DNA of 64,000 bases from Escherichia coli (GTDB lineage: Bacteria; Pseudomonadota; Gammaproteobacteria; Enterobacterales; Enterobacteriaceae), in assembly GCF_044324785.1 (NCBI RefSeq), contig NZ_CP172129.1; one strand, 5' to 3'. Below are positions 44,134-52,972 of the stretch, in pieces. Both the position numbers and the translations under genes were made by a program. A model generated the notes under the pieces. That model saw nothing but the letters and a program-made list of their open reading frames with translations, was not told the DNA's origin and searched no databases. Numbering within the stretch: position 1 is the stretch's first letter; each line of letters begins with the position of its first letter.

Positions 44134-44524
44134 TCCGTGCTCATTTCCTCAAAAAATACAAGAAAAGAATTAGTATTCTAACAAAAAGTGAAATAAATTG
44201 TATCAAACTCCCTCTTTTAATCCTGTTGAGTAAATCAGCTTTTGCAATAGGATTGAAAGAGTGTAAGTGGAATCTCTTCCGGATACTCGTTACCACCGTG
44301 GCTAGAATATCTACGGCTGCGGGCCAGTAATAGATTAAGTGATAACAGCTGTCTGGAAATGTAGGGGCGTATCCACTAATCATAATCATTGTGAGATAAA
44401 TATTACGGGGCATTTTATAATGAATAAAATATACTCTCTAAAATATTGTCATATTACCAATACCATGAAGGTGATGCTGCCAACTTACTGATTTAGTGTA
44501 TGATGGTGTTTTTGAGGTGCTCCA

Positions 44525-44800
44525 GTGGCTTCTGTTTCTATCAGCTGTCCCTCCTGTTCAGCTACTGACGGGGTGGTGCGTAACGGCAAAAGCACCGCCG
44601 GACATCAGCGCTATCTCTGCTCTCACTGCCGTAAAACATGGCAACTGCAGTTCACTTACACCGCTTCTCAACCCGGTACGCACCAGAAAATCATTGATAT
44701 GGCCATGAATGGCGTTGGATGCCGGGCAACTGCCCGCATTATGGGCGTTGGCCTCAACACGATTTTACGTCACTTAAAAAACTCAGGCCGCAGTCGGTAA
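44525..44800 (+). CDS. insA: IS1 InsA
   Basis: [43 protein letters not shown]... Confidence 0.9.
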
Positions 44801-45222
44801 CCTCGCGCATACAGCCGGGCAGTGACGTCATCGTCTGCGCGGAAATGGACGAACAGTGGGGCTATGTCGGGGCTAAATCGCGCCAGCGCTGGCTGTTTTA
44901 CGCGTATGACAGTCTCCGGAAGACGGTTGTTGCGCACGTATTCGGTGAACGCACTATGGCGACGCTGGGGCGTCTTATGAGCCTGCTGTCACCCTTTGAC
45001 GTGGTGATATGGATGACGGATGGCTGGCCGCTGTATGAATCCCGCCTGAAGGGAAAGCTGCACGTAATCAGCAAGCGATATACGCAGCGAATTGAGCGGC
45101 ATAACCTGAATCTGAGGCAGCACCTGGCACGGCTGGGACGGAAGTCGCTGTCGTTTTCAAAATCGGTGGAGCTGCATGACAAAGTCATCGGGCATTATCT
45201 GAACATAAAACACTATCAATAA
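44719..45222 (+). CDS. insB: IS1 InsB (expressed as InsAB' by frameshift)
   Basis: Overlapping -1 frame ORF typical of IS1. Confidence 0.85.
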
Positions 45223-45521
45223 GTTGGAGTCATTACCGCCTTGACCATCAGATAGTTATTTTGGTGCTAGGGATACTGAGTGTGAACAGTTAGCGCGCGT
45301 CCTCGCCAGTTAGCTCGCTACGCTCGGTTACACGACGGCTACGAGTACTAGTGATAATTATTGACTGAGGTATGTGCTCTTCCTGTTTCCTTTTTTGATG
45401 TGTTGCTCTCATTTTAAACAACTTTGCGGTTTTTTGACTACTTTGCAATTTTGTTGTTGCTTTGCAATAAAATGCAAGATTAAATGAAAATATGCAAAGC
45501 AATGATTAAAGGATGTTCAGA

Positions 45522-46688
45522 ATGAGACTCATGGAAACACTTAACCAGTGCATAAACGCTGGTCATGAAATGACGAAGGCTATCGCCATTGCACAGTTTA
45601 ATGATGACAGCCCGGAAGCGAGGAAAATCACCCGACGCTGGAGAATAGGTGAAGCAGCGGATTTAGTTGGAGTATCTTCTCAGGCTATCAGGGATGCCGA
45701 GAAAGCAGGCCGGCTACCGCACCCGGATATGGAAATACGAGGACGGGTTGAGCAACGTGTTGGTTATACAATTGAACAAATTAATCATATGCGTGACGTG
45801 TTTGGTACGAGACTACGACGTGCTGAAGACGTATTTCCGCCGGTGATTGGAGTTGCTGCTCATAAAGGGGGCGTTTACAAAACCTCTGTTTCTGTTCATC
45901 TTGCTCAGGATCTGGCTCTGAAGGGATTACGTGTTCTGCTCGTGGAAGGTAACGACCCCCAGGGAACAGCATCGATGTATCACGGCTGGGTGCCAGATCT
46001 TCATATTCATGCAGAGGATACTCTCCTTCCCTTCTATCTTGGGGAAAAGGACGATGTCACTTATGCAATAAAGCCTACTTGCTGGCCTGGGCTTGACATT
46101 ATTCCTTCCTGTTTGGCTCTGCACCGCATTGAAACTGAGCTAATGGGCAAATTTGATGAAGGTAAATTGCCCACCGATCCACACCTGATGCTCCGACTGG
46201 CCATTGAAACCGTCGCTCATGACTATGATGTCATTGTCATTGACAGCGCGCCTAACCTAGGTATCGGCACGATTAATGTTGTATGTGCTGCTGATGTGTT
46301 GATTGTCCCCACGCCTGCTGAGTTGTTCGACTACACTTCCGCTCTGCAGTTTTTCGATATGCTTCGTGATCTGCTCAAAAACGTAGATCTTAAAGGATTC
46401 GAGCCTGATGTACGTATTTTGCTTACCAAATACAGTAATAGTAATGGTTCTCAGTCCCCGTGGATGGAGGAGCAAATTCGGGACGCCTGGGGAAGCATGG
46501 TCCTAAAAAATGTTGTGCGTGAAACGGATGAAGTTGGTAAAGGTCAGATCCGGATGAGAACTGTTTTTGAACAGGCTATTGATCAACGCTCTTCAACAGG
46601 TGCCTGGAGAAATGCCCTTTCTATTTGGGAACCTGTCTGCAATGAAATTTTCGATCGTTTGATTAAACCACGCTGGGAGATTAGATAA
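45522..46688 (+). CDS. sopA: Partition ATPase SopA (ParA family)
   Basis: Matches F SopA as recalled; deviant Walker [17 protein letters not shown] repeats in the promoter. Confidence 0.9.
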
Positions 46689-47659
46689 TGAAGCGTGCGC
46701 CTGTCATTCCAAAACATACGATTAAGACTCAACCGCTTGAAGATACTCCGTCATCGGCACCAGCTGCACCGATGGTGGATTCGTTAATTGCGCGCGTAGG
46801 AGCTATGGCTCGTGGCAATGCTATTACTTTGCCTGTATGTGGTAGGGACGTGAAATTTACCCTTGAGGTGCTCCGGGGAGATAGTGTTGAGAAGACCTCT
46901 CGGGTATGGTCAGGTAATGAACGTGACCAGGAACTGCTTACCGAAGACGCCCTGGATGATCTTATCCCTTCTTTTCTACTGACAGGTCAGCAGACACCAG
47001 CATTCGGTCGAAGAGTGTCTGGGGTCATAGAAATTGCCGATGGGAGCCGCCGTCGTAAAGCTGCTGCACTTACAGAAAGTGATTATCGAGTTCTGGTTGG
47101 TGAGCTGGATGATGAGCAGATGGCTGCATTGTCCAGATTGGGTAACGATTATAGGCCAACAAGTGCTTATGAACGTGGTCAGCGTTATGCAAGCCGATTG
47201 CAGAATGAATTTGCTGGAAATATTTCTGCGCTGGCTGATGCAGAAAATATTTCACGTAAGATTATTACCCGCTGTATCAACACAGCTAAACTGCCTAAAT
47301 CAGTTGTTGCTCTTTTTTCTCATCCCGGTGAACTATCTGCCCGGTCAGGTGATGCACTTCAAAGAGCTTTTACAGATAAAGAAGAATTACTTAAGCAGCA
47401 GGCATCTAACCTTCACGAGCAGAAAAAAGCAGGAGTGATATTTGAAGCTGAAGAAGTCATCACTCTTTTAACGTCTGTGCTTAAAACGTCATCTGCCTCA
47501 AGAACTAGCTTAAGCTCACGACATCAGTTTGCTCCTGGAGCGACAGTGTTGTACAAGGGCGATAAAATGGTGTTAAACCTAGATAGATCTCGTATTCCAA
47601 CTGAGTGTATAGAGAGAATTGAAGCCATTCTTAAGGAACTTGAAAAAGCGGCACTTTGA
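46688..47659 (+). CDS. sopB: Centromere-binding protein SopB (ParB family, 323 aa)
   Basis: Matches F SopB as recalled; immediately downstream of sopA. Confidence 0.9.
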
Positions 47660-47749
47660 TGCGGCACGTTTTAGTCTACATTTATCTGTCTTTACTTAAT
47701 TTCCTTTAGCACAGGCTAGAAAACATAACTAACTGGCCTGAATATTATA

Positions 47750-48093
47750 TCTGGGACCACGGTCCCAGTTGTATTGTCGGTCTGATAATCAGTCTGGGAC
47801 CACGGTCCCACTCATATTGTCGGTCTGATAATCAGTCTGGGACCACGGTCCCACTCATATTGTTGGTCTGCTAATCAGTCTGGGACCACGGTCCCACTCA
47901 TATTGTCGGTCTGCTAATCAGTCTGGGACCACGGTCCCACTCATATTGTTGGTCTGATTATCGGTCTGGGACCACGGTCCCACTCATATTGTTAGTCTGA
48001 TAATCAGTCTGGGACCGCGGTCCCACTCGTATTGTTGGTCTGCTAATCAGTCTGGGACCACGGTCTCACTTGTATTGTCGATCTGATTATCAG
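47750..48093. repeat. sopC: sopC centromere: 8 tandem 43-bp repeats, each with the inverted repeat tgggaccacggtccca
   Basis: Counted directly; repeats abut with no spacers (not CRISPR). Confidence 0.9.
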
Positions 48094-48699
48094 CGTGAGA
48101 CTACGATTCCATTAATGCCTGCCAGTGAGTGTGTGGAACATATCTTGGCCAGTGGCTTGGTCTGTGATGTGCTGCGTATACCGGGTGAACCGCCCCGCCG
48201 CTTGTTTGACCGCTATATTCTGCGGGAGTTTTCTTGGAGGCACGGGATGAAATCCGCAGCATGGCGGATGCCCTGGCAAAAATCCGGAAATGATGACGAT
48301 GGCGGGGAAAATCCCCGCCTTTTTCCTGCCGGTCCCCGGACAGAGCACAAAGGAAGTCGCCGCCGGCTCCGCTTTACCCGGCCATGCGGAGCATGGCCTT
48401 GTGGGGGTTCAGTTATGTGGACGTCGAGTCGTGTGCGGGCTGTGCCGTGCCTCCATCTTAGCCGGGCTGGCGTTGATGCAAGCAACTGTCTTAATGGGAG
48501 GCGGTTATCTGAAAAAAGTACGGGATAATATTATGGAATCGCCCATCTCAAGCAAAAAACTGACTCGCTTCGATACTACGCTGACAGGCTGTTTTGAGCG
48601 AGATATCTCTCGTGTCGGGCATCGACATTTTAAATGATTCTAAATAATATGAGCAGGGTCAGTCTTATTAAAGATTAAAACACCGGATAACAAGTTTTA

Positions 48700-49766: not shown

Positions 49767-50768
<1,002 letters not shown>

Positions 50769-51654: not shown

Positions 51655-52026
51655 GTGCCGGACAGTGAATGCGTTTTTGCCGTGGTGCTGACCCGTGGGA
51701 ATGTGCGCCATATGGCTCAGGACTGGAACCTGTCAGACGATGAGCTGGAAACCGTCATGCAGCGGCTGGACGATGCTTTTGTATATGGCGCATGTGACAG
51801 AGTTGTTTCCGATATTGTCAATGAACTGATGGAGGAAAAGCGCGTAAACCGCCTTGTAACAGTCCCTGCGGTGCTGCTGGAAAAAGTGATGGTGATGGCT
51901 GGTAGTGAAATTTATCGCCTCCATGCTGTCGGGAGCGAGAACGGGGGCGACGGTGACGCATTTGTCAGGGAAGAACGTGAGATTATGCGGGTGATGCGTC
52001 AGGCGCTGGACGGGGAGAACGGGTAA
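51655..52026 (+). CDS. Hypothetical leading-region protein (123 aa)
   Basis: ORF with a stop/start overlap (TAATG) with the next ORF. Confidence 0.4.
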   Translation: MPDSECVFAVVLTRGNVRHMAQDWNLSDDELETVMQRLDDAFVYGACDRVVSDIVNELMEEKRVNRLVTVPAVLLEKVMVMAGSEIYRLHAVGSENGGDGDAFVREEREIMRVMRQALDGENG

Positions 52027-52208
52027 TGAATATCAGCACGGAAACCCGCGAAATTCTGCGTAATTACAAAACCGTGATTAATGCGCGGCGTCGTGAGATG
52101 GGGCAGAAACCGCTCACCACCGCGCAGATTGTTGATGAAATCTGCGATTTTGTGACGAATCAGCAGGCGGTTTTCCTCGGTGGTCACTATATCCTTCAGG
52201 GCAGCTGA
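52026..52208 (+). CDS. Hypothetical leading-region protein (60 aa)
   Basis: Translationally coupled small ORF. Confidence 0.3.
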   Translation: MNISTETREILRNYKTVINARRREMGQKPLTTAQIVDEICDFVTNQQAVFLGGHYILQGS

Positions 52209-52442
52209 AACAGGTGATACAGGGCAGGCGGTGGAGGCCGCCTGTCAGCCCGCGCGAACCCCCCTGGCAGGCTGACGCCTGCCGGAAGGGAAGCGGGCCA
52301 CGCTGACGCGTCGCCCGTTACCCTTCCCGTTAGTGATGTGTCCGGAATGTTTTTTCTGATGTTATTTTTCTGTGGTTACCGTGTTTGTTATTGTTCTTCT
52401 TCTTTTTCCTCTTCCTCTTCTTTCCGTTCCTCTCCTGTTTAT

Positions 52443-52972
52443 GGCTTTTCCGGGCGTCCCCCTGGCGGGGCGGGCTGTCGTGAACGGAGCCAGCGGAGCT
52501 GTCTCCGCCCTGGCGGGCTTCCATCCCTGACGCGAAACCATGGCTTGCAGCGACCGTTCCGGTCGCGCCGCCTCTGTCGCGCCGTGGCCTGCGCTCCCGG
52601 CATCCCGGCAAAAGGCGCCGGAATGTAAGGAGCAACGCCGTTTCGCAAACCGCGCTTCACGTCGTTGCGGCGGGTCCCTGCTCATTGCCTGCCAAGTGCC
52701 ACACACCCGTATGAGTCCCTGTCGCCGGGGGCTGAGACAGCCACAACCTGCCGCACTGACTGTCCAGGGTAAATGAACAGCCCACAAAATTTTTTACCCA
52801 GAACCCGGTAAAAAATTTTGCGTTCTGCCCAGGACAGGTGCGTCAGGCCGTGGCAGTGATGCCCCTTGCGGCGAAGGTTCTCAAACGGGTGAAGTTCATA
52901 CCACAGGGAATACAGCAGCAGGTTCCCGCGAAACGTCAAAACCGCGGCTCCCGAAACTCAACGGGTGATGTT
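52443..52972 (+). repeat. Structured ~530-bp repeat, copy A (Frpo/ssi-like single-strand promoter element)
   Basis: Near-identical to 55701-56228 and 61091-61618; internal palindromes such as caaaattttttaccc...gggtaaaaaattttg. Confidence 0.6.

Follow-up and report, generated by a model that had tools for sequence, protein, structure and literature searches.

Among the closest described relatives of the locus analysed here is sopC, the centromere of the F plasmid, which is treated as twelve repeats with ten sites in the framework of SopB spreading and clustering (PMC6238139). A comparison of 22 different natural sopC centromeres found 3 to 17 repeats (Pillet et al. 2011, PMC3177203). With each arm of the site numbered from position 1, outermost, to position 7, beside the centre, SopB binding was strongly dependent only on arm positions 2, 4, 5, 6 and 7 and on the central purine-pyrimidine; arm positions 1 and 3 were tolerant, changes at position 3 reducing SopB binding in vitro only slightly (PMC3177203). 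SopB did not bind the 1st or the 12th repeat of F in vitro, and in centromeres with fewer than 10 repeats the internal variation was confined to positions 1 and 3 (PMC3177203). A single repeat is enough for partition according to Biek & Shi 1994 and Lane et al. 1987, as cited in PMC3177203, where it is also suggested that SopB spreading compensates for repeat number. On the protein side, residues R190, K191, R195 and R219 of SopB have been identified experimentally as contacts with sopC DNA (PMC3597684).

We analysed a stretch of Escherichia coli DNA 64,000 nucleotides long, called the window below (contig NZ_CP172129.1, RefSeq assembly GCF_044324785.1), in which an earlier note made from the sequence alone had recognised a sopC centromere. 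The features that lead up to the array are these:

45297..45521, plus strand: region homologous to F, upstream of sopA; the homology starts at 45297, which in F lies 223 bp upstream of sopA

45522..46688, plus strand: sopA, type Ia ParA-family partition ATPase, 388 aa (open reading frame list, NCBIfam, Pfam)

46688..47659, plus strand: sopB, ParB-family centromere-binding protein, 323 aa (NCBIfam, Pfam)

From what is known of F, the sopAB promoter and operator presumably lie within 45297..45521. SopA scored 872 bits against the NCBIfam equivalog NF010259 (cut-off, 725) and contains the Pfam domains AAA_31 and CbiA at residues 108-345, together with a weak MerR-type helix-turn-helix match at residues 41-69 of its N-terminal region that fell below the Pfam cut-off. 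An alternative in-frame sopA ATG at 45513 would give a protein of 391 aa. SopB, whose open reading frame overlaps the end of sopA by one base, scored 636 bits against NCBIfam NF010252 (cut-off, 274), matched Pfam PF18090 (SoPB_HTH) with an E value of 6e-42, and retains R190, K191, R195 and R219. A large ParA, a Walker-type ATPase with a DNA-binding extension at its N terminus, encoded upstream of a ParB that bears a helix-turn-helix, is the arrangement that defines a type Ia ParABS system. Both proteins are intact and close to those of F, with a single residue different in SopA and 311 of 323 residues identical in SopB (12 differences); at the DNA level, identity to F across the sop region is 92%. 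The segment is plasmid-borne: in the E. coli set, 9,327 of the 9,396 places where it was found were on plasmid records.

The array starts 90 bp downstream of the sopB stop codon. Tandem Repeats Finder reported 47750-48093 as a single tandem array of 8.0 copies with a period of 43, free of indels and with 92% matches (score, 548), and cutting the sequence in register gave the following units and sites (sites are listed as unstranded):

47750..48093, plus strand: sopC units 1-8, 8 x 43 bp, with a 16-bp SopB site at offset +2 in every unit (Tandem Repeats Finder, in-register cut)

47752..47767, unstranded: SopB site 1, perfect consensus; the first unit of F is degenerate instead

47795..47810, unstranded: SopB site 2, perfect consensus

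47838..47853, unstranded: SopB site 3, perfect consensus, within the hybrid unit from the 86-bp exchange described below

47881..47896, unstranded: SopB site 4, perfect consensus

47924..47939, unstranded: SopB site 5, perfect consensus

47967..47982, unstranded: SopB site 6, perfect consensus

48010..48025, unstranded: SopB site 7, centre GC in place of AC, purine-pyrimidine kept

48053..48068, unstranded: SopB site 8, right arm GGTCTCA, one change, at position 3

48094..48136, plus strand: unit 9, terminal and degenerate, with its core TGAGACTACGATTCCA at 48096-48111; homology to F stops at about 48124

Units 1 to 6 contain the perfect 16-bp site TGGGACCACGGTCCCA in the in-register cut. The site in unit 7, TGGGACCGCGGTCCCA, has an altered central dinucleotide that is still purine-pyrimidine, and the site in unit 8, TGGGACCACGGTCTCA, has a single substitution at position 3 of the right arm. 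Set against the pattern TGGGACC-Pu-Py-GGTCCCA, seven units are exact, the eighth is off at position 3 only, and the ninth is degenerate as in F, with four changes spread over both arms of its core (left positions 3 and 7, right positions 4 and 6), although it stays in register with the preceding 43-bp units. The window sites thus conform exactly to the published rules for SopB binding. With unit 9 included, the array measures 387 bp.

Known sopC loci consist of two or more direct repeats of 43-45 bp directly downstream of sopA-sopB on a plasmid, with a cognate SopB that has the helix-turn-helix and the specificity residues, and each of these features is present here. Divergent terminal repeats, which are usual in the family although not obligatory, are represented by the last unit; the first unit is consensus. 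The 43-bp register, the 16-bp sites and the adjoining intact sopA and sopB confirm the identification of sopC made in the earlier note, and its count of eight full 43-bp repeats plus a degenerate ninth at 47750-48093 is correct. So is its remark on point variation between copies, since all nine units differ from one another in sequence.

A search with TGGGACCRYGGTCCCA, allowing one mismatch at most, gave eight matches in the 64-kb window, all within the array, and none in 100 dinucleotide-preserving shuffles. Sites dispersed beyond the array, in the fashion of N15-type phages, were also sought at up to four substitutions, and the 64-kb window yielded only the nine array positions. An inverted-repeat search found a second small palindrome, CTGAT(A/T)ATCAG, in each 27-bp spacer, perfect in units 1, 2, 6 and 8 and with one mismatch in units 3, 4, 5 and 7. 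It is conserved although, according to Pillet et al. (PMC3177203), bases outside the 16-bp site are without effect on SopB binding specificity. Open reading frames that cross the array (48070-48528 on the plus strand and several on the minus strand) were rejected as genes and are regarded as mechanical frames over repeat and junction DNA; the sole PGAP gene call near the array is a frameshifted fragment from 48124.

The sopC of F occupies record positions 52014-52529 of NC_002483, as 12 x 43 bp. The two arrays have in common the 43-bp period, the 16-bp SopB site and the position just after sopB. Cut in register, the F array consists of a degenerate unit 1, ten usable units and a degenerate unit 12. 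The degenerate unit 1 of F (TGGGCCCACTGTTCCA) stands in contrast to the perfect consensus of window unit 1, whereas the core of F unit 12, TGAGACTACGATTCCA, is identical to that of window unit 9. The earlier note was right that the window has fewer repeats than F, but its eight were set against a twelve that includes the degenerate units 1 and 12; like for like, the comparison is nine units with twelve, and eight SopB-competent sites (those of the window judged by sequence) with ten. The note had also said that the ninth unit has lost the palindrome. The same degenerate last unit ends all 17 arrays that we counted, the window and F included, with one further change (TGAGACTACGATTCTA) in three of them. 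The ninth unit is, to judge from these array ends, the conserved right-hand end of sopC, ancestral and with no recent loss of the palindrome. The spacers differ from those of F at several positions (for example, CTCATATTGT in the window and CTCGTATCGT in F).

Units 2-11 of NC_002483 (L001, 8015-8530) contain nine Pu-Py consensus sites and one key-position mutation, whereas Table 1 of Pillet et al. gives F eight consensus sites and two key-position mutations (PMC3177203). This mismatch is probably due to the reference sequence or to a difference in counting.

Both flanks differ from those of F. On the left, IS1 in the window replaces the repE/incC neighbourhood of F. The IS1 copy has its left inverted repeat at 44470 and its insA/insB open reading frames at 44525-45222, and lies about 60 bp before the start of F homology at 45297. 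Upstream of sop, where F has repE and iterons, are the aerobactin receptor gene iutA and the aerobactin operon; the sop cassette is therefore separated from the F-type FIA replicon neighbourhood. On the right, homology to F breaks off roughly 30 bp inside unit 9, and a leading-region-like block lies downstream of sopC. Starting at 48123, thousands of plasmid records (E. coli, Klebsiella, Salmonella, Shigella, Citrobacter and others) match the sequence at 86-91% identity; they do not match the query over sopB/sopC, and the matching loci bear no annotation other than "hypothetical protein" or ycfA. PGAP places a frameshifted, N-terminally truncated gene fragment at a start equivalent to 48124. 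Because F homology stops about 30 bp into unit 9 and the truncated fragment starts at 48124, the right edge of sopC (48094-48350, with the junction near 48124) appears to be an old recombination junction at which a gene was cut short.

Farther to the right, a 323-aa open reading frame at 49767-50738 on the minus strand encodes an IS110-family transposase, ISEc32 in the near-identical plasmid NZ_CP023363, and this ISEc32-like insertion interrupts the block that runs from sopC to the leading-region genes (antirestriction, psiB). Only from 34797 onward is the window collinear with NZ_CP023363, an IncFIA/IncFIB plasmid: a single 29,204-bp alignment at 99.99% identity covers 34797-64000. In the fetched part of NZ_CP023363 nothing else aligned to the window over 1 kb or more, which suggests that the sit/iuc side is arranged differently in the source plasmid.

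To see how the repeat number varies among related plasmids, we fetched 15 regions from further plasmid records, picked down the ranking of two similarity searches, and counted their units by script. BLAST spans are unreliable for this purpose, as alignments stop inside the array if the counts differ and offset pieces are left unjoined; our survey is therefore a sample and not a census. The 17 arrays, including the window and F, had 4, 5, 5, 6, 6, 7, 7, 9, 9, 9, 10, 10, 11, 11, 12, 13 and 13 units. Sampled plasmids that encode exactly the SopA and SopB of F had 4, 6, 7 or 11 units, and those with exactly the SopA (WP_001238646.1) and SopB (WP_000817028.1) of the window and the same right flank had 9, 11 or 13. 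The count is thus quicker to change than even one amino acid of the proteins that read it. The earlier note had proposed a comparison with other F-like plasmids, and this comparison puts the nine units of the window inside their range of 4 to 13; the departure from twelve that it had singled out is unremarkable against that range and the published one (3-17; PMC3177203).

One sampled plasmid, pLAO19 (NZ_OP242249, L006), has the 11-unit allele of ColV-type plasmids. Its SopA, SopB and left and right flanks are identical to those of the window, and so are its units apart from one indel: the 901 bp of window 47450-48350 equal the pLAO19 sequence minus exactly 86 bp, or two units, in register and with 0 mismatches. 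The junction can be placed as follows:

47858..47864, unstranded: 86-bp deletion junction interval relative to the 11-unit allele, inside unit 3; any equivalent position gives 0 mismatches

With each distinct unit given a letter, the order is a-b-c-d-e-f-g-h-i in the window and a-b-j-k-g-d-e-f-g-h-i in the 11-unit allele, c being a j/g hybrid. Units 3 and 5 of the longer allele are thus fused into one hybrid unit, unit 3 of the window, and what is missing from the window is a unit with a site mutation at position 5 (GGGCCCA) and one of two GC-centred units. The exact in-register difference points to a single unequal exchange. The extra 86 bp of pLAO19 have 8-9 mismatches to each neighbouring 86 bp; because they copy neither neighbour, a deletion from 11 to 9 units, by unequal exchange or slippage, is favoured on parsimony over a tandem duplication from 9 to 11. 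The pLAO19 array fits the pECOS88 centromere in Table 1 of Pillet et al. (11 units, 8 consensus, 1 canonical terminal repeat and 1 key mutation; PMC3177203).

The 13-unit alleles of p30177-1 (L004) and pKKo009_1 (L005), which have the same Sop proteins and flanks as the window, are of the pVM01 type in the same table (PMC3177203). Their first two and last five units are common to the window, and they have four units more; taking a single 172-bp stretch out of a 13-unit allele yields the window sequence except for 1 mismatch. Compared with the 11-unit allele, the 13-unit alleles have two further copies of unit d. Another sampled array (L016) also has nine units, in the order a-b-j-k-g-d-d-h-i, which marks an independent deletion event. 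The arrays of this lineage (window 47750-48136 and L004-L006) have a higher-order period of four units (172 bp), 172-nt copies having been found in them. Units j-k/l-g resemble e-f-g, the first two pairs each having a single difference in the spacer, and this resemblance suggests an older four-unit duplication in the lineage.

A nine-unit array beside longer alleles might arise in the assembly and not in the plasmid, if near-identical repeats had been collapsed from a true array of 12 (or 11 or 13) units, and the earlier note had named a collapsed twelve as the result that would overturn it. The existence of 11- and 13-unit alleles with the same Sop proteins and flanks makes such a collapse look plausible. 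However, the nine units are all distinct, which allows unambiguous placement of reads, the 387-bp array is within reach of a single read or read pair, and hybrid unit 3 reads unambiguously as a clean recombinant formed in register. Moreover, at least 30 independently sequenced complete plasmid records contain the segment 45400-48700 (3,301 bp) at 100% identity in one ungapped piece, from sources that include dogs, people, cattle, pigs, water and sediment in different countries. At 99% identity or above, 57 PLSDB records match 47450-48350 and 45 records in the RefSeq complete E. coli set match 47650-48250; some match is present in 1,916 of the 5,426 genomes of that set. We consider a collapse barely credible. 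It is also extremely unlikely that the array is a decaying centromere, shrinking and mutating after another partition system took over and its function was lost. Within its own lineage the array is among the short ones, relatives at 95-99% identity being listed with 7-14 places per record, and two of its eight sites are off the perfect consensus. Yet sopA and sopB are full-length and nearly identical to those of F, the two variant sites are altered only at tolerated positions (the central Pu-Py and position 3), and the degenerate ninth unit is ancestral and not new. Natural centromeres of 3-8 units are, in addition, kept on other plasmids, and one repeat was sufficient in the experiments cited there (PMC3177203).

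The shortening might instead have been selected. One form of this idea is that the loss of two units weakened sopC incompatibility, or altered the size of the partition complex, in a cell that held another Sop-bearing plasmid. The nine-unit allele has indeed spread to many hosts, and Bouet et al. are said to have reported in 2005 that extra sopC copies exert incompatibility in a dose-dependent manner. The spread is, however, explained by hitch-hiking on one successful backbone, as represented by the long 99.99% match to NZ_CP023363, and among plasmids whose Sop proteins are identical the count ranges freely between 4 and 13; the published view, moreover, is that spreading of SopB makes up for differences in repeat number (PMC3177203). 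We regard adaptive tuning of this kind as very unlikely. A related idea, that the recurrent and independent shortening to nine units in the window and in L016 reflects selection for a smaller sopC, with neutral repeat turnover as the alternative, strikes us as very unlikely indeed; if it were true, a smaller sopC might lower incompatibility with co-resident Sop-bearing plasmids or remove a defective site. Where extra copies are supplied in trans, it is reasonable to say, as the earlier note did, that repeat number can influence incompatibility and the size of the complex; in cis, the published evidence gives the number hardly any role in partition.

The window array is very probably the working sopC centromere of a sopABC (type Ia ParABS) cassette on an F-like virulence plasmid of the IncFIB/ColV type, and a natural short allele of nine units whose count arose by in-register recombination or slippage. 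Established knowledge of the F Sop system would then supply the mechanism. SopB dimers would bind the eight sites through the helix-turn-helix and R219, and bound SopB would nucleate a large partition complex by spreading and clustering. Stimulated by this complex, the SopA ATPase on the nucleoid would ensure that both daughter cells receive plasmid copies. Unit 9 would be the conserved non-binding terminal unit, the counterpart of the "12th repeat" of F. The difference in count from F would reflect the gain and loss of 43-bp units by in-register unequal recombination or replication slippage, the window allele being exactly two units short of the 11-unit allele in its lineage. On the same knowledge of F, binding and partition would be expected to proceed as in F, and the count itself to be without consequence.

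The significance of the locus is small: sopC is a textbook plasmid centromere whose repeat-number variation was catalogued in 2011, and according to the published evidence the number is not critical for partition. Within this lineage the array does offer a clean example of in-register unequal exchange, and the order of its units is an inexpensive marker with which to trace plasmid lineages. The twelve repeats of F are unfit as a yardstick for other arrays, as SopB binds only ten of them and the terminal one is a dead unit that has been conserved.

The other short arrays, pO157, pVir68 and pETEC74 (6, 8 and 4 units in Table 1 of Pillet et al., PMC3177203) and the sampled arrays of 4-7 units (L003 and L010-L015), resemble the window array in their tandem 43-bp units, consensus SopB sites and degenerate last unit, and differ from it in their spacer variants and flanks and, in most cases, in having the degenerate first unit of the F type. 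Short sopC arrays are maintained in nature. In the format of that table, the window array would be entered as 9 (43 bp), with 7 consensus sites, 1 canonical terminal repeat, all Pu-Py and 0 key-position mutations. A consensus first unit was found in a minority of centromeres by Pillet et al., and only once in a centromere this short (PMC3177203); its presence in the window is a small departure from their summary and not from the mechanism. The repeat count is ordinary, because eight units and one dead end-repeat fall within the published range of 3-17, and the nine-unit sopC of the window is an ordinary allele of an already known natural polymorphism.
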